Program-made: the position numbers and the translations under genes
Shown here: positions 3,451 to 52,587 of the stretch, in pieces
How positions within the stretch are numbered: the first letter of the stretch is position 1
Layout: each line of letters begins with the position of its first letter
The notes under the pieces: model-generated
Seen by the model: only the letters and a program-made list of their open reading frames with translations
Database searches by the model: none
Told to the model about the DNA's origin: nothing
IMG/VR virus record: IMGVR_UViG_3300020045_003852
Coordinates: 16,015-80,014 of that record
DNA from: a virus
DNA length: 64,000 nucleotides
Reading direction: 5' to 3' (one strand)

Positions 3451-5190
3451 TTGAAAATTGGGAAGAATCCCTGTCCTAAGTGCAGGGAAAAGGGGCATGA
3501 TGAAAAAGGAGATAACTTCTATTACTACGGGGATGGTTTAGGAGGGTATTGCTTCGCATGTTCTCATACGATTTTATCTGACGAGCAGAAGGAGGCCAGA
3601 AATATTGATACAATTGAAGAGGAGGAAGAAGTGTCGACACGAGAACGTATTACAGACGAAGAGAATGCTAAAATTAAATCCTACACTGGAACTGATGGAA
3701 AAGGATTTCGAGGAATTCGTAAAGATATTAATCAATTCTTTGGTGTTCGTTATCAGTATGATGAAGAAACCGGAGAGCCAATTAAAGAGTACGTCCCAAC
3801 AACAATTGATTCAGAGCTTGTAGGCTATAAGACGCGCCTATTCCCGAAGGACTTCTCACAGCCAGTTGGCGTTGTCGGAAAGGACTGTGACCTTGTTGGT
3901 CAATTTCGATTTAAGAATAACAATCATACTTGCTTAATCGTTGGTGGAGAAATTAAGCAACGCGCAGCATACCAAATGCTCGTTGATGACCAAAAGCGTA
4001 GGGGCAAGGAGGACTATGAGTCTATTGCTGTTGTTTCCCCAACTATTGGCGAGTCTGGTGCCTGGAAACAAATTCAGAAGCAATATTCTTGGTTGTCACA
4101 ATTTAAAAAAATTGTAGTTGCGATGGACTCGGATGATGCAGGACAACTTGCAAACGAAGCAATCTGCAAGATTCTTCCTAAAGGTAAGTCATTTATCATG
4201 AAGATGTCCTTCAACGATGCGGACGAGTATATCAAGCATGGAAAAGAACAATCTTTTATCAATGACTTCTGGAAAGCAAAGCAATGGACTCCTTCTGGTA
4301 TTGTGGACAGCGACCAAATCTATAGTGAAATCAAGGAACGTGCAAAAGTTGATAAACTCCCATTCCCACCAATGATGGAAGGTGTTAATAAAGCCCTAGC
4401 AGGGGGCGTGAACTACGGATATATTTGTAACATTCTTGCCGGAAGTGGATCAGGCAAGACCTCTGCAATCAATCAGTGTATTGCATATTGGATGATTGAC
4501 CTTGATCTTAATATTGCTGTGCTGTCTCTTGAGGCTGAAGCAGCGGAGTTTGGTGAAAATCTTCTATCGCACTACATGGGTAAGAAGATTGCACTAATTA
4601 AAGACAAAGAAGAAAGAATTGCTTTTGTAGGAAGTAAGGAAGCAGAAGATGCAGCCAACACATTGTTCAAGCGGGAAGATGGTACAAGCCGCCTATATCT
4701 ACTTGATGATCGTGGGGACTACTCTCAGCTTCAAGAAAAAGTCGAAGAGATGATTATTGCTTGCAACTGTAAAGTAATCTGTATTGATGTTTTATCCGAT
4801 GTGTTTGCAGGGAAGACCATTGAGGAAGTAGATAAGTGGATGGCGTGGGAAAAGAAGATTGTGAAGCAATACGGTGTAATTATTATTAACATCTCTCATG
4901 TTAGAAAGTCTGGTAGTGGAGAGAAGGCTGCTTCGCAAGGTGCATTTCTTACGGAAGAAAGTATTATCGGATCAGGGACACAGTATCGTAGTGCAGGCGT
5001 TAATATTGCTCTACAACGTGATAAAAATAATCCAGACGAGATGATTAAGAATACTACGAGTGTTCATGTGCTAAAGTCGCGCTCGACTGGATGGACAGGG
5101 CTTGCTTGCGAAATGTACTATGATTCTGCTACTCATACATTGTGGGATAAAGTAGAGTATATGTCGACACATGGACCAAGAGACTTCTAG
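3451..5190 (+). CDS. DNA primase-helicase (T7 gp4-like)
   Basis: Zn ribbon CPKC/CFAC, TOPRIM DSDDAG, Walker A AGSGSGKT, SHVRK, KSR. Confidence 0.92.
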   Translation: MKIGKNPCPKCREKGHDEKGDNFYYYGDGLGGYCFACSHTILSDEQKEARNIDTIEEEEEVSTRERITDEENAKIKSYTGTDGKGFRGIRKDINQFFGVRYQYDEETGEPIKEYVPTTIDSELVGYKTRLFPKDFSQPVGVVGKDCDLVGQFRFKNNNHTCLIVGGEIKQRAAYQMLVDDQKRRGKEDYESIAVVSPTIGESGAWKQIQKQYSWLSQFKKIVVAMDSDDAGQLANEAICKILPKGKSFIMKMSFNDADEYIKHGKEQSFINDFWKAKQWTPSGIVDSDQIYSEIKERAKVDKLPFPPMMEGVNKALAGGVNYGYICNILAGSGSGKTSAINQCIAYWMIDLDLNIAVLSLEAEAAEFGENLLSHYMGKKIALIKDKEERIAFVGSKEAEDAANTLFKREDGTSRLYLLDDRGDYSQLQEKVEEMIIACNCKVICIDVLSDVFAGKTIEEVDKWMAWEKKIVKQYGVIIINISHVRKSGSGEKAASQGAFLTEESIIGSGTQYRSAGVNIALQRDKNNPDEMIKNTTSVHVLKSRSTGWTGLACEMYYDSATHTLWDKVEYMSTHGPRDF

Positions 5191-40366: not shown

Positions 40367-42000
40367 TTAGTTTAGGAAGGGGGATTCTTTTGTCATTGTG
40401 GGTAAAATAAACATCGGGAGTACAGATGTTTTAGCTAGTGTTGTAAATGCATCTGCTACGGCATCGACACAATCATCGTGACCTTTTCTCCCACCGTCAA
40501 AGGACTCTAGCTCCTGGAAAAAAAATTCATTCCAGTCACCTCTAACTACTTTAACATTACCTGCTTCGGACATACTAGAGAATGGAAGGAATCTTGAAAT
40601 CTTCCCCTTGTGTCCAGACACTTGCACAAGCCTTGCTGGAATACCGTTCTCAGACAATACGCGGATAACATGCTGTGACCATGAACGTCCTGCACCAATT
40701 TCACCAGGAATCATTACCTGCACTTCATCAACACCATCATCTCTTGCTGTCTTAACAATTTCGTCAAGAACATCACCAGATAACTTCCTGAAGCGATAAA
40801 CATCCTCGACGGTATAGATACCAAACTTCGAGCGTGAAACTTTCACCCCTGCCGTATAGTCCGGGTCTTTATTACTTTCACTCGGAAGTGTTGCTGCCAA
40901 GTCCCATGCCCTTACGCGCCGCACAGCGTCATCAGGAGGAAAGTCTACCATCTCAACCCATTCACGCTGCCAATACTTGCTTGCTGTTTCTCTAGCAAAC
41001 CAACTCCCCATCAACAAACGGTCACGTTCCGCACGTTTGAGATTCTCAAGACGGCGAACATATTCAGGGTCACGATTCATCAATATAGGGTTGCTGTAAA
41101 TATTAGCAGCAATGAACGTGTAAGTCATTGGTGTTGTATTTGGATACTTTTCAAGCATCTCTTCCGCAGAGTCAGCAAAGACCAAATCCCCACGATACTG
41201 TGAGAAATATCTTGTAGTCCCTGATTTTTCTGGAATAGGAATCCCTGTTTCCTGATCCAAATACCAATTTGTGAATTTCAAAAGGAAGGAGTCGGGGTGC
41301 GGATTGCATGTGGCGACTAATTTGTGTGGGCCTTTGGCCTTAGAACGAATACGAGAGAGCAAATACATAACCTGTTCTTGAGAATGCCATTGGCACTCAT
41401 CGAATACCACTAGGCTGTATTGTCCACCGTCAAAGTTAGTAATTTCTCTATCGGCACCAAGAGTTTTACACTGTACGAATGCACCATTTGGAAATGTGGC
41501 AGACATCCTATCTTGACGGAATGCTGGGCCAAATGGCTTATACATGGATTGCATCTCCATCCACAATCCTCCGGCCTGAGATAACTGCACGCTTGACTGC
41601 CTGATGTAGACAGCGCGAAACTCAGGGTCGTCTTTGAATGCCAAGGAGTACATTAGTGCTAGGTGGGATTTCCCACTACCTGCTATTTGTGTTCAAGATA
41701 GTTCGTTAACCTATCCCCGCAATAAAGCTGCTGCATGTCGCCATGCAGATCAGATCATATCTTCTATGTTTCCCGTTTCGAGCCACTTGGCTCTACGTCT
41801 TTCGACTGATCGTTACACGTTCCCGTTAGGGCTTCGTTCGGTATTGTCTGCTAGAGAGTTTCACCGAGTTAGAGAAATGTTTTTAACGTGGAGGCGCAGA
41901 GTTCACCACCACCGTAAATTACAAATTGTGCTTCGTGCGTCAGGAATTGCCTCTGTGTTTCAGAGGCAGGGCCATATACTGGCAATTTCTTTTTAGCCAT
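40367..42000 (-). CDS. terL: terminase large subunit, spliced (exon 1 42000-41905, exon 2 41683-40367; 470 aa)
   Basis: Joining the exons restores Walker A IYGGG|AGSGKS; Walker B VVFDE, ATCNP, nuclease AWDLA and HDDCVDA. Confidence 0.92.
41684..41904 (-). mobile_element. group I self-splicing intron (IA2-like, 221 nt, no ORF)
   Basis: P/Q/R/S-like motifs AACUCGGUGAAA, AAUACCGAACGAAGC, GUAACGAUCA, GAAGAUAUGAUCU; P7.1, P7.2, P9; P1 U-G wobble; in-frame stop if unspliced. Confidence 0.92.
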
Positions 42001-42730
42001 TGGAGCCTTTCCTTACCCCGTGCGTAGGAGCAAAAGTATAGCCTGTCGCTGAGGCGATCTTCAGGATGTTTTCTCTCCAAGCAATTCCATTAGCAAGCGC
42101 AACATCATACCCAAGTTTATCAATGTTAAAGTATTTGCTTACTTGCTTACCCTTTGATTTGTTTGCAACAGCAACGATATAGTTGTATGTTTTACCGTGC
42201 TTTGAGACTGTTGAATATTGTGTCACACCATTATGTCCTGTATTGTTAAGACAAGACAGACCCCGGTTCCTTGTTTGCTGATCTACAGTTTCCCACCTGA
42301 TGTTACCTGGAACGTAGCCTAGGGTGTTATCAATTCTTCCAACCGTATATTTTATATCATCAGGCGGCTTCTCTCCTACGTATGCAGCAAAGGCCAACAA
42401 GTCATGCCTCCACTCATCAGCAATTGTAACGCCAATAGCGCCATATCGTTTGTAGTCTTTACAGTTTGGATTAGTACAACGCTGAATTATCCCACTCCAA
42501 GAGTTATAGACTTCTGTGCCAAGAAGCCCATGTGTAGAGATGGCGTCCTTATGCAAACATCCACACGACCGAGTAGTACCATACCTTAAACTACTCCCTG
42601 CAATAACCTTCTCTTTACCACAATCACACTTGCACAACCAATGATAGTGGTTTTTAATTTTATCTGATCGGGCAATGACAAGAAGCCTACCAAAGCGTTG
42701 CCCAACAAGTTCTAGTTTGCTTCCCATCAA
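41993..42730 (-). CDS. HNH-like/AP2 homing endonuclease
   Basis: GQRFGRL, WLCKCDCG, SCGC, RC, RIDN..GY.PGN.RW; AP2-like tail. Confidence 0.85.
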   Translation of the reverse strand: MMGSKLELVGQRFGRLLVIARSDKIKNHYHWLCKCDCGKEKVIAGSSLRYGTTRSCGCLHKDAISTHGLLGTEVYNSWSGIIQRCTNPNCKDYKRYGAIGVTIADEWRHDLLAFAAYVGEKPPDDIKYTVGRIDNTLGYVPGNIRWETVDQQTRNRGLSCLNNTGHNGVTQYSTVSKHGKTYNYIVAVANKSKGKQVSKYFNIDKLGYDVALANGIAWRENILKIASATGYTFAPTHGVRKGSNG

Positions 42731-42743
42731 CCCTCCCTAATCA

Positions 42744-42962
42744 TTAATCAGCCCTAATAAGTAACGCCCTATTACAAGCATTTACCTGAGTAATGGGAAA
42801 TTTCGTAGCCTCTCCCATAGCCTTAATAATATCAGCAATTTCCTTATGACAATTGCTACGCAATTCCACTTCTTCTAGCACTCTTTCCACCTGCTGAAAT
42901 TCATCCACCTCAACATAGCAAAGTGTAAACTTACCTTTAATTGACACAATACGAATATTCAT
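42744..42962 (-). CDS. hypothetical protein
   Basis: AGGA SD. Confidence 0.6.
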   Translation of the reverse strand: MNIRIVSIKGKFTLCYVEVDEFQQVERVLEEVELRSNCHKEIADIIKAMGEATKFPITQVNACNRALLIRAD

Positions 42963-42980
42963 TATATGTTCCTACAAAAT

Positions 42981-43012
42981 AAAAGGACTCCTACCGTTAG
43001 GTAGAAGCCCTT
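42981..43012 (-). terminator. terminator downstream of the ncRNA/tRNA unit
   Basis: AAGGGCTTCTACC-TAAC-GGTAGGAGTCCTTTTATTTT on the - strand. Confidence 0.7.
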
Positions 43013-43108
43013 AGTGAAATGTCTCCTAACGGAGCTTCTTTGATTTATGAGTTTATATTATTACAAATTAACGTACTCACACTACGTTTAATGCTAAATA
43101 TCTAAACG

Positions 43109-43184
43109 TGGAGCATCCCATCGGCAACGATCCGATAACCTCTAGATTACAGGTCTAGTGCTCTGCCAATTGAGCTAGAGATGC
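43109..43184 (-). tRNA. tRNA-Thr(UGU), non-canonical
   Basis: 76-nt cloverleaf GCATCTC...GGGATGC-T-CCA; anticodon loop CC-TGT-AA; T-loop ATCGTTG. Confidence 0.85.
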
Positions 43185-43195
43185 GTAATTAATAT

Positions 43196-43768
43196 GTGGC
43201 AGGAGATGATCCCTGCTTACTGGACGGCATACCAGTCTCATACCCGCAGTGTACCTTTCGGCCGACCGAGTGTGTATCATCACTACACAGTGCACATAAC
43301 GGGTGGTGACTAATGTATCTGGTCGAATGCCTACACATATTCGGAGGCCGTAGAAGTCAACATTCGTTATGTTCCTACACCAAGGGTAATGTGTAAGAAT
43401 GCTTATTTTCAAACCCACTTAGTTATTCCGTCATGTACACGAGGGCGATAGCCAAGTAATAAGTCTTTACGAGAATGACTCGTCGATATTGGCGGAGGTG
43501 CCAATAAACCTCTTGCGAGGAAAGTGTTGATTACTCTTAACTTTTACTACTGACTCCTCCATTGTATTCCGCTTACAAAATGCGGAAACACCTTTTCGTA
43601 GTGTTTGCTCAAGATCACGCCGTATTCTTTATTTCATGACGCAACGGATTCGTCAAATTCTTCCATTAACGCAGGAAGTGATTACGACCAAAGGGAAGGA
43701 GTTGCCCTTCAATATTAGCTGACTGCCAATTCTCTTTGCTACATCATCTACAAAGTGTTCTTCATTTA
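43196..43768 (-). ncRNA. large structured non-coding RNA (~570 nt; ROOL/GOLLD-like context, family not assigned)
   Basis: Own consensus promoter; about a dozen hairpins with complementary loops; no credible ORF; followed by a tRNA. Confidence 0.72.
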
Positions 43769-43774
43769 GATTAC

Positions 43775-43803
43775 ATTATAGCATTACATTTCGCTATTGT
43801 CAA
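43775..43803 (-). promoter_or_regulatory. sigma70 consensus promoter for ncRNA + tRNA
   Basis: TTGACA-17-TATAAT with TG extension. Confidence 0.88.
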
Positions 43804-43822
43804 CATATTTCTACAATTATTT

Positions 43823-44245
43823 TCACATACTACGAATTGATGAAGAATCAAGGATAATCTCAGGGCAATATTTTGGCTGAGAATAGTCATCCCCTTCCTC
43901 TGTAACGTCTCTGATTTGCTTCTGTTGCGTTGCACGTTCTGCCAAAAGTAAACGAGATTGAGCAATTGCTCTACTTAAATTATCGCGGGAAATTTCAGAA
44001 CTAACAGAAATACGACGATCAATCAAGAATTTAGCAGCATCAATCTTTAACTTTTGATCTGCTTTATCATCCTTAATAATGTCTTCAAGTAGTTTAAATG
44101 CTGCGTCTAAACTCTTGTCGGCTCTGCGTAGAACTTTCTGAAGATCATTCTTTCTTGCGAATGAAATTTGAGCGTTGGCCGGGATAAGGGCTGGCTCGGT
44201 TGAGTCTGAATCATTATCAAGTTCTTCGTTATTATTTGCTGTCAT
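43823..44245 (-). CDS. hypothetical protein, possible terminase small subunit
   Basis: AAGGA SD before MTANNN; helical KLKIDAAKFLIDR motif; upstream of terL. Confidence 0.5.
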   Translation of the reverse strand: MTANNNEELDNDSDSTEPALIPANAQISFARKNDLQKVLRRADKSLDAAFKLLEDIIKDDKADQKLKIDAAKFLIDRRISVSSEISRDNLSRAIAQSRLLLAERATQQKQIRDVTEEGDDYSQPKYCPEIILDSSSIRSM

Positions 44246-44774
44246 TGTTATCCTTACCATCAATAGAAGGCGCTTGCGCAAGTAATTTACTCTTGTCACT
44301 CGACCCCCTTGTTGTCCCAAACCAGAATGCTAACGCGCTTGAGAATCCCCCACTCAATTGTCCAATCATATATACAACAATATCCCTGTTTGTTGCAGGA
44401 ACATCAAAATTGAGTAGTAGAACAAGTGTTGCTGTGAATGCTCCTACAACGAAACATGTTAGCAATGCTGGAATAATTGAATTAGTTGATGCTTGAAGTT
44501 TCCTAGCGTCTTGTGTATCTTGAGTGTATAACTGTTGTTCAGTAATGTCAAGTTCACGCATCTTAATTGCCAATGCATCTTCTGCTTGCTTAAGTTGTGT
44601 AATCTGTTCTGCTGTCAGAGAACCCTCAGAGAAGGCTTCCTTGACCTTATCTACAGTGGGTTGATCCATTCCCATCACCTTGCCGATTGACTCGACTGCG
44701 AGGCCGGCTAATGGCCCCCCAAGGGCTGTTGCTAACGTAGGAGCAACTACTCCTATAATTGATTTCCAATCCAT
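44232..44774 (-). CDS. holin-like membrane protein
   Basis: APTLATALGGPLAG, two C-terminal TMs, FWFG; next to the endolysin. Confidence 0.7.
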   Translation of the reverse strand: MDWKSIIGVVAPTLATALGGPLAGLAVESIGKVMGMDQPTVDKVKEAFSEGSLTAEQITQLKQAEDALAIKMRELDITEQQLYTQDTQDARKLQASTNSIIPALLTCFVVGAFTATLVLLLNFDVPATNRDIVVYMIGQLSGGFSSALAFWFGTTRGSSDKSKLLAQAPSIDGKDNNDSK

Positions 44775-51599: not shown

Positions 51600-51701
51600 T
51601 TAGATTTGTCATTCCTCATCAGCCGCTACGCGGCGAGTAGAACAACATTTAGATATTAAGAATTAAGTTTGTTATTCTGCATCTTAAATTCTTACATTAC
51701 T

Positions 51702-51730
51702 ATTATATCACATATTTCTCTCTAAAGCAA
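51702..51730 (-). promoter_or_regulatory. sigma70-like promoter
   Basis: TTGCTT-17-TATAAT. Confidence 0.7.
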
Positions 51731-51749
51731 GTAGATTGGCATATTTATT

Positions 51750-52225
51750 ATTCCCGCCCATACTGGGCTGCTCTTGCTTCGCTTTGCACACAACAATATA
51801 CTGACGCGCTTGCGCTTGTCTTGCACAGAAACATGTTGTGTAATGTATACTAGCCGCTTAGCGGCCAGCAATAAGCGCATATGCGCCATTCCCAACATGT
51901 GCTGTAAGCACCTTAGCCCTTCGGTGATTCCGACTGATACTACGTATCTACGGAGAACTACTAAATTACTAATGCTCCACAGACCGCTTCGCTCTTGACT
52001 TTAATTATAGCGAAGCTATGTGTTTGTGCATATAGCCGCTTAGCGGCCAGTTCGACATGCGTCCTAGACGCTAGTCTACTAGCGCCTTAGGCGCATGTTA
52101 AAGTCAAACCCGTTAGGTGGTTTGGTAATCAGGTATTTAGTAGTCGTCTTAACCAGCACTGTGCGAAGCTGAAGCGCCTTATGTTGGCCGCTAAGCGGCT
52201 ATTTCATAGCGCTGTAAGCGCGTTA
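51750..52225. repeat. non-coding array of short GC-rich inverted repeats (mini-hairpins), region 1
   Basis: About 10 palindromes with 5-bp arms and 3-nt loops; GCCGC-TTA-GCGGC occurs three times. Confidence 0.75.
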
Positions 52226-52317
52226 ACTACTAGGGGGACTTTGTGGTACCATGCGAATGTAAATAGTCCTTTTGAGGTACTATGTACAGATCGATCAACA
52301 TTTATCTTTCGTAGGCA

Positions 52318-52346
52318 TTGACTTTCGCTCAATATTGGTGTATAAT
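52318..52346 (+). promoter_or_regulatory. sigma70 promoter
   Basis: TTGACT-17-TATAAT. Confidence 0.8.
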
Positions 52347-52374
52347 GGTTGTATGACTTGAGAAAGGAGTAGTT

Positions 52375-52587
52375 ATGTTTGATTGGATAGGTTCTACTAT
52401 GGAACAGTGTGCGAGGCACATTGCGGAAACTCCAGCCGCTAATACATATTCACAAATAAAATACCACGAGGTATGGGGGGAGCAAAAAGTAGTAGATAAA
52501 ATTATTGAGGCCAGGAAACTGGCAAAGATGTACAGACTGCTAGCTAGGGCAGATAAAATTAGACAGGAAATGCAGGAGGATAATTAA
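52375..52587 (+). CDS. hypothetical protein
   Basis: AAGGAG SD. Confidence 0.65.
   Translation: MFDWIGSTMEQCARHIAETPAANTYSQIKYHEVWGEQKVVDKIIEARKLAKMYRLLARADKIRQEMQEDN

Follow-up and report, generated by a model that had tools for sequence, protein, structure and literature searches.

We analyzed a 64-kb stretch of phage DNA (hereafter the window), part of the 80-kb IMG/VR virus record IMGVR_UViG_3300020045_003852, in which a consensus promoter on the minus strand opens onto ∼584 nucleotides (nt) of leader followed directly by a gene for a threonine transfer RNA (tRNA-Thr). While an earlier reading of the bare sequence (the sequence-only reading) had taken this stretch to be a single ornate, multiply pseudoknotted noncoding RNA, we find it to be a chain of about 17 short hairpins drawn from exchanged modules of 55 to 105 nt, not one conserved ornate fold. 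Our preferred interpretation, to which we give a probability of roughly 55%, is that of a composite and probably functional tRNA-operon leader RNA, released by RNase P, in which a few structures are selected. On this interpretation, at least two of its pieces are under selection as RNA structure, namely, a hairpin with a CU-rich loop near the 5′ end and a 90-nt core hairpin. The leader is real and unusual in its hairpin density, yet it falls far short of the elaborate, pseudoknotted molecule first proposed.

The layout of the transcription unit is as the sequence-only reading had described it. That is, a perfect TTGACA-17-TATAAT promoter, a stretch without a credible open reading frame (ORF), tRNA-Thr, and an intrinsic terminator follow one another on the minus strand (Table 1), and the tRNA is the only one that ARAGORN finds in the window. 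Across 42500-44500, just two terminator-like sites were seen, one downstream of the tRNA (43012-42983) and the other at 44406-44378. From the promoter to the first tRNA, all on one strand, there is neither an ORF nor a terminator, which is the arrangement of a tRNA-operon leader.

The same operon recurs among phages related by their terL gene, for which 80 of 220 loci were kept from an alignment search of IMG/VR. These relatives are Felix-O1/Pakpunavirus-like phages of ∼85 to 90 kb, many of the named ones bearing myovirus-style vB_..M names, and the terL identity to named phages is below 60% in every case. Further terL relatives, at 70 to 86% identity (P0002, P0004, P0005, and P0006), occur in Logan assemblies. 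Many of the loci show a TTGAC-type promoter pattern and then tRNAs, 1 to 2 kb upstream of terL, the arrays comprising 1 to 21 tRNAs with tRNA-Thr(UGU) most often in first place. The promoter lies ∼10 to 50 nt from the first tRNA in some relatives (L014, L048, L031, and L016), 190 to 480 nt in others, and up to ∼725 nt in L053; some operons have no leader, so that leader lengths span 0 to ∼725 nt. Because the relatives share the promoter and the tRNAs upstream of terL, and because their leader lengths are continuous, we assign the window leader to this conserved tRNA operon, where it stands at the long end of the range.

What sets the leader apart is its density of local hairpins, each defined by a stem of 5 or more Watson-Crick pairs and a loop of 3 to 12 nt. 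There are 17 of them in 584 nt versus 4.9 ± 2.0 in dinucleotide shuffles, and none of 500 shuffles reaches 17. When a 584-nt frame is slid along the 64 kb (635 positions; mean, 6.8 ± 2.9 hairpins), the leader shares first place and falls within the top 0.8%. The hairpins named by the sequence-only reading, such as GAAGG/CCUUC and AAACAC/GUGUUU, are indeed present in the sequence. The minimum free energy (MFE) of the whole leader corresponds to a z score of −2.38 for the sense strand, compared with −1.3 for its antisense, with the stability concentrated in a three-way-junction domain (43560-43494). None of 200 shuffles of segment 43490-43565 folds as stably, and the domain shows no conservation in the related leader L003 described below. 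Direct repeats inside the leader are restricted to families of 9 to 18 nt, so the modules are not paralogues of each other. Elsewhere in the window, 17 hairpins per 584 nt are reached just once, at 51700-52480, where the divergent strand switch is located.

A leader of the same type was found in one other phage type only, represented by L003 and L008 from IMG/VR and by the metagenomic L088, all with the same core sequence. The L003 type has a terL protein 93% identical to that of the window, and the DNA from terL to portal is 80.7% identical. Alignable between the two are the promoter, a few short islands, the 90-nt core (43400-43489; 86.8% identical to L003 and L008, with unalignable flanks), and the trailer past the tRNA position (87.3%), both core and trailer exceeding the terL-portal value. 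In alignment A1, the TTGACA-17-TATAAT promoter of L003 is intact though its flanks have diverged, and the terminator is also kept. The 10 substitutions that separate the two cores make for three doubly compensated pairs (A-U to C-G, C-G to G-C, and U-A to A-U) and four changes in unpaired columns, and they break no pair; if substitutions are placed at random, the probability of no break is 0.0011 and that of at least three compensated pairs 8e-5. In addition, two G-U pairs persist, in keeping with a fold of the strand that carries the tRNA. Covariation between the homologs thus speaks for the core but not for the global fold or the pairings listed by the sequence-only reading, which are not kept in L003.

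These comparisons also bear on whether the stretch encodes one or more small proteins, which can hardly be credited. The minus strand offers frames of 31, 31, 49, and 87 amino acids (aa) within 43768-43185, none of them credible as an ORF. The longest, the sole leader frame scanned, has no match in Pfam or PHROG and runs on through the tRNA; the aligned frames are entirely different in L003; and since two 1-nt indels between the window and L003 break the frame in the best conserved part, the core is not coding.

Neither ARAGORN (default and 85% thresholds) nor the Rfam tRNA model (E <= 1) detects a tRNA in L003. Since this phage type nonetheless keeps a perfect promoter and a terminator, the transcript seems to matter beyond the supply of a tRNA. 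At the position of tRNA-Thr (L003:4326-4420), there is a UGU-bearing stem-loop that resembles an anticodon arm and has one compensated pair in its stem, but for which an acceptor stem was not found; the element may be either a decayed or a noncanonical tRNA. On the downstream side, the region 42943-43092, comprising a hairpin, the terminator, and the ribosome-binding region of a 72-aa ORF, is 87.3% identical to L008, and the trailer might itself constitute a small RNA. Its resemblance to SdsR/RyeB is weak and nonsignificant (19.5 bits, E 1.2).

Beyond this one phage type, our searches returned little. A core 23-mer, a core 18-mer searched in metagenomes (six stretches, only L088 genuine), and a trailer 18-mer found the L003-type phage only, while nhmmer with the leader against the 80 terL loci gave only tRNA matches and L008. 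A covariance model of the core (R1) found no further copy in 81 sources, i.e., 817 kb of related phage DNA, and a 901-nt blastn query had no match among 50,697 phage records. As queries, the 165-aa upstream protein yielded one weak locus and a single terL sequence four loci.

Table 1. Features of the leader-tRNA transcription unit (window coordinates)
Feature	Position	Strand	Basis
Sigma-70 promoter TTGACA-17-TATAAT with extended −10 (TGn)	43775..43803	-	12/12 consensus matches, TG present before −10
Leader (5′ external transcribed spacer), ∼584 nt, ORF-free, hairpin-dense, mosaic	43185..43768	-	Lies between promoter and tRNA-Thr
17-nt motif AGAAUUGGCAGUCAGCU	43717..43733	-	15/17 shared with the relatives' leader motif CAGAAUUGgCAaUCGguU of model R2
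Hairpin with 9-nt CU-rich (anti-Shine-Dalgarno-like) loop CAACUCCUU	43688..43712	-	Centroid fold
Two-hairpin module AAACAC/GUGUUU + UUCCGC/GCGGAA	43566..43620	-	Fold, z −1.0
Three-way-junction domain closed by GGAGG/CCUCC	43494..43560	-	Segment 43490-43565: MFE −22.0 kcal/mol, z −3.80
Conserved core: hairpin ACGAG-UCAUU-CUCGU (43483-43469) + long irregular hairpin (43463-43402)	43400..43489	-	RNAalifold
3′ module: hairpins UGUGU..ACACA, ACUGG-UAUGCCGU-CCAGU, GCAGG..CCUGC	43196..43289	-	Fold, z −0.14
tRNA-Thr, anticodon UGU	43109..43184	-	ARAGORN; Rfam tRNA 53.4 bits
3′ trailer (∼125 nt), two hairpins + intrinsic terminator	42980..43108	-	z −3.79; terminator call
Intrinsic terminator	43012-42983	-	13 pairs plus T-run

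The modular makeup of the leader emerged from Logan contigs of four public runs, which were compared with the stretch at a likeness of at least 80% (parts not covered are uninformative, and the runs labelled 'RNA?' are possibly DNA). A 151-nt X2 contig matches exactly the interval 43566-43620, with 7 differences, and is unlike the window on both sides. Similarly, three X2/X9 contigs cover 43187/43196-43289 with 2 to 4 differences and are all unlike it beyond 43289, and an X6 contig covers the promoter region (43759-43823; 7 differences and 1 gap) and is unlike it past both ends. An X1 contig matches 43384-43488 with 3 differences, and an X2 contig matches 42950-43092 in the trailer. The borders 43489/43488 and 43289/43290 recur in independent comparisons, the former coinciding with the start of the similarity to L003. 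Together, these contigs suggest that the leader is a mosaic of 55- to 105-nt modules with sharp borders. The habitats in which fragments were seen are wastewater and aquatic ones.

Part of the 3′ module reappears in L093, an apparently unrelated phage contig, where 37 nt (43247-43211) are 86% identical, the loop UAUGCCGU is fully kept, and the shared sequence directly follows a tRNA-like gene. A search with a 16-mer from the 3′-module hairpin returned four stretches of which one, L093, was genuine, and a degenerate hairpin pattern recovered L093 alone from viral contigs and had no match among genome contigs. We treated 72 genome stretches that match a 17-mer as chance, given that they show no similarity beyond 18 to 24 nt. 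The L093 locus itself (L093:1616-1850) consists of the tRNA-like gene, with a 14-nt anticodon loop and an Rfam tRNA score of 28.2 bits, just under the cut-off, then a ∼115-nt closed structured element that shares the 37 nt, and then an ORF. Rfam at E <= 10 on L093 found no family for the element beyond tRNA or chance level. An RNase P-like resemblance of L093 and the window's 3′ module, based on a GAAAGUCC-like word, was dropped since no RNase P family matched at E <= 10.

Could the leader nevertheless be one large, ornate, pseudoknotted RNA akin to ROOL or GOLLD, very divergent or of a new class, that folds as one unit and perhaps forms multimers? Its size is suggestive, 584 nt being close to the mean of 581 nt for ROOL (PMC5737381). 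Its location is too, with tRNA-Thr directly downstream on the same strand, ROOL and GOLLD being described as often adjoining tRNAs in phages (PMC5737381 and bioRxiv 10.1101/2024.12.08.627333). Like these RNAs, the leader is several hundred nucleotides long, noncoding, and phage-encoded; its hairpin density is high, in the L003 unit it would stand alone without a detectable tRNA, and GOLLD likewise has a variable and a conserved half according to bioRxiv 10.1101/2024.12.08.627333. Still, we judge such an RNA highly unlikely here. For one, the families themselves are not found. No Rfam family matched the leader, either at the gathering threshold in a scan of the whole 64-kb window or at E <= 10 over 42900-44000, ROOL, GOLLD, RNase P, and Intron_gpI included; tRNA was the only family matched there above chance level. 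Dedicated searches of the entire 80-kb genome at E <= 10 also gave 0 matches, both for the ROOL model (RF03087; 574 positions, gathering score 99.1 bits; 3 candidates scored, control genomes likewise matchless) and for the GOLLD model (RF02032; gathering score 150 bits; 12 candidates scored). Nor does the leader display the six multistem junctions and three conserved pseudoknots reported as hallmarks of ROOL (PMC5737381).

Divergent RNAs of this phage are not invisible to Rfam, because the relaxed search does find the group I intron in its terL gene. The leaders of the relatives also remained without a match, in scans of L047, L053, and L003 at E <= 1 and of L040, L024, L041, L043, and L050 at E <= 0.5; apart from matches at chance level, these scans returned tRNAs and, in the terL gene of L047, group I introns. 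Two further candidates were rejected for the window. A group I intron (RF00028) in the leader had no match at E <= 10 in 42900-44000, and for a tRNA-relic origin of the modules nothing was seen in the leader with ARAGORN at 85% thresholds or the Rfam tRNA model at E <= 10.

Pseudoknots fared no better than family membership. Perfectly complementary 5-, 6-, 7-, and 8-mers number 189, 39, 8, and 2 in the leader versus 172.5 ± 15, 43.5 ± 8, 11.1 ± 4.5, and 2.8 ± 2.2 in shuffles, so that its long-range complementarity is at chance level. The loop-loop and long-range pairings of the sequence-only reading are degraded in L003, where 5/7, 5/7, 3/5, 3/5, and 2/6 positions are kept and none of the five is kept fully. 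One supposed contact of a loop with a distant segment, CCUCC with GGAGG, was rejected as a pseudoknot; it is an ordinary nested helix that closes the three-way junction. When the pairs of the window MFE structure were projected on L003, 39 of the changed pairs were kept and 66 broken, as compared to 35 to 43 kept in slid controls, a test that is weak outside the conserved islands because the alignment is unreliable there. A conserved global fold of the leader thus appears to have no support. The mosaic also sets the leader apart from ROOL and GOLLD, with two versions known, modules that occur separately and with other flanks in other phages, and a core model that finds no further copy. What endures of the claimed new large structured RNA is that the leader is noncoding, hairpin-rich, under its own promoter, linked to a tRNA, and without an Rfam match; the one ornate fold does not.

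The second selected piece lies near the 5′ end. Both the window and L003 have a possible hairpin here with a 9-nt loop ending in CUCCUU, that of L003 having the same shape, the loop UUUCUCCUU, and one G-C to C-G swap in the A1 columns. At 43688-43712 in the window, this CU-loop hairpin is seen in the centroid fold only, the MFE structure preferring the alternative GAAGG/CCUUC. CCUCCU-type sequences also occur in hairpin loops of L047, L023, and L024.

In relatives with 50 to 55% terL identity, uncultured Felix-O1/Pakpunavirus-like phages, the ∼140 nt before tRNA-Thr consist of a small hairpin and a long hairpin, the loop of the latter, CCCCUCCUC, being invariant in 8/8 aligned relatives (alignment A8). 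A covariance model built from these eight (R2) and searched in 81 sources gave 16 good members, L024:5224-5367 and 15 other loci (alignment A9). In a 19-row alignment that includes three weak matches, 91.7% of cells are paired, as opposed to 71.9% for shuffles and no more than 52% for slid controls, and 23/26 pairs show a compensatory change. The exchanges are often from G-U to A-U or G-C, fitting folding of the tRNA strand. The R2-bearing loci L024, L040, L041, and L043 had no Rfam match at E <= 0.5.

The window shares with the R2 loci its operon position, the 17-mer, a candidate hairpin with a CCUCCU-type loop, and, in the case of several relatives, a similar strong promoter. It has a AGAAUUGGCA motif before that hairpin, although the motif is short, the hairpin is the centroid and not the MFE structure, and the enrichment of CU sites in the window alone has a P of 0.065. 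In contrast, the R2 hairpin measures ∼25 to 30 bp and that of the window 8 bp, and while the R2 motif adjoins tRNA-Thr, ∼500 nt of other modules separate the CU-loop hairpin from the tRNA in the window. The search of the 81 sources gave no match of R2 to the window at E <= 10; with filters off, the best match in the window leader is 43760-43677 (5.5 bits, E 0.33).

CU-rich sites are also enriched across leaders as a group. In a set of 20 leaders with many related members, the sense strand contains 75 anti-Shine-Dalgarno-like 5-mers versus 31.4 ± 6.6 expected. A stricter count in 11 leaders gave 22 sites versus 14.1 ± 3.5 (P 0.019), as opposed to 18 versus 17.8 on the antisense strand.

Several points weigh against our interpretation of the leader as a composite functional RNA. 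The covarying core was structured with both sequences in view and with one gap shifted by hand, and its covariation rests on 10 substitutions, there being two distinct leader versions only (window; L003 = L088). Whole-leader stability is modest (z −2.4), and both the conserved core (z −0.34) and the 3′ module (z −0.14) are thermodynamically ordinary. Watson-Crick hairpin density is equal on both strands, and a feature acting at the DNA level could equally account for it. The module borders come from short Logan contigs of depth 2 to 5, which are possibly chimeric. As for the CU-loop hairpin, the window is not a member of the R2 motif; its anti-Shine-Dalgarno-like sites taken alone are marginal (4 versus 1.55, at the P given above); and the CU-rich motif is anti-Shine-Dalgarno in identity only by the textbook motif, which we take as given. 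Finally, no RNA run on record was listed for the stretch, and the expression, processing, and stability of the leader are all inferred from sequence.

Some of these points would suit a stretch that is mostly nonfunctional spacer, left as debris by turnover of the tRNA array and by homing-endonuclease or recombination traffic near the HNH gene, with the islands being recently exchanged DNA or DNA-level sites for packaging, replication, or protein binding. We hold this account to be possible, if on the whole unlikely. The perfect promoters and terminators kept in both phages count against it, as do the identities of core and trailer relative to terL-portal DNA and the three compensated and zero broken pairs of the core. 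It would also have to accommodate the strand specificity of the CU-rich enrichment and the strong covariation of the relatives' leaders, in which the many exchanges from G-U to A-U or G-C are sensible only on the transcribed strand. On the other hand, spacer would go well with the variable leader length among relatives, with the apparently degenerate tRNA of L003 and a tRNA-like relic seen by eye in the L053 leader, and with a leader 9-mer, AAUUGGCAG, that recurs in the tRNA D-loop (repeat D6). The TGTACA palindrome in the core, the strand symmetry of hairpin density, and the nonconserved global fold point the same way. The region lies just upstream of the HNH gene and an intron-bearing terL, and homing by SegB in the tRNA region of T4 provides a precedent (PMC2330249).

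According to the reading we prefer, that of a composite tRNA-operon leader, the host sigma-70 RNA polymerase would start at the consensus promoter and transcribe leader, tRNA-Thr, and trailer up to the terminator, as the sequence signals indicate. Cleavage by RNase P at the 5′ end of the tRNA, expected from established tRNA processing, would then free the leader as a separate RNA. More tentatively, the freed leader or its modules might persist as stable small RNAs, and their exposed loops might base-pair with purine-rich, Shine-Dalgarno-like targets or titrate an RNA-binding factor. Models for such action may be seen in the RNAs that derive from tRNA spacers in T4, PAK_P3, and E. coli tRNA operons.

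A bolder version, which we consider distinctly doubtful, sees here a new kind of large modular phage RNA gene. Structured cassettes of 55 to 105 nt would be shuffled among phages like the tRNA genes of an array, and the conserved CU-rich loops would mimic the end of 16S rRNA that carries the anti-Shine-Dalgarno sequence, so capturing ribosome-binding sites of mRNAs or a ribosome-directed host factor early in infection. The RNA would have outlived the tRNA in the L003 lineage, and this survival, if the idea is true, would show a function independent of tRNA supply.

The kind of RNA is known, that is, a phage noncoding RNA tied to tRNA genes; this sequence family is absent from Rfam, and we found no description of it in the literature, our searches not having been aimed at the exact motif. 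Among the closest systems is sRNA2 of phage PAK_P3, described as lying between two phage tRNAs, ∼100 nt long, and strongly expressed late in infection, in a report that cites the T4 band C and D RNAs as the only earlier small RNAs from a virulent phage (PMC4933390). PAK_P3 is a distant terL relative of the window phage (∼44% identity). The T4 RNAs (species 1 and 2) reportedly sit in the T4 tRNA cluster and measure ∼100 to 140 nt each. Like the leader, all of these are non-tRNA RNAs in phage tRNA regions, but they are ∼100 to 140 nt in length compared to 584 nt upstream of the tRNA; the likeness drawn here is one of setting. The 3′ external transcribed spacer of the E. coli leuZ transcript, a tRNA-processing by-product said to work as a base-pairing RNA sponge, may illustrate how the leader or trailer could act once released; that spacer is short and 3′ of its tRNA, whereas the leader is 584 nt long and 5′.

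Phage tRNA regions have repeatedly yielded abundant RNAs of obscure role, as illustrated by T4 band C/D, the PAK_P3 sRNAs, ROOL, and GOLLD. The present locus adds a case whose non-tRNA part is eight times the length of the tRNA, with a consensus promoter and exchangeable structured modules, and whose leader persists in a relative from which the tRNA has apparently been lost. Perhaps the more useful result is a by-product, the covarying hairpin of the relatives with its near-invariant CCCCUCCUC loop upstream of tRNA-Thr, which offers a testable handle on the role of tRNA-operon leaders in infection, e.g., binding of Shine-Dalgarno sequences or of ribosomal components.

In transcription order, the neighborhood of the leader-tRNA unit reads endolysin, two proteins of unknown function, the unit itself, the 72-aa ORF, an HNH endonuclease, terL, and portal. 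The anticodon loop of tRNA-Thr is CCUGUAA, with a C at the nearly universal U33 in the Rfam alignment. The tRNA-like unit in the L053 leader (∼4980-5110) was called by neither ARAGORN nor Rfam; in it, a 7-bp stem resembles an acceptor stem, and the hairpin GUGGG-CCCGAAU-CCCAC resembles a T arm.

The terL gene of the window is itself interrupted (41685-42000, minus strand). Exon 1 runs from 42000 to ∼41905 and ends in ...YGGG, and exon 2, which opens with the Walker A sequence AGSGKS, begins at ∼41685. The insert of ∼220 nt between them scores 36.9 bits against Rfam Intron_gpI (41914-41731), below the gathering score of 50. The 165-aa ORF was rejected as a candidate terL N terminus: the true exon 1 lies at 42000-41905, and the long L005 ORF is an intein. 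In the close relative L008, terL is uninterrupted and encodes 470 aa. L005 (1-2615) carries an insert at the same site, between GGG and AGSGK, plus an intein-like Hint domain right after GSGK, and terL of L047 (6721-7424) contains two group I intron matches of 81.9 and 38.6 bits.

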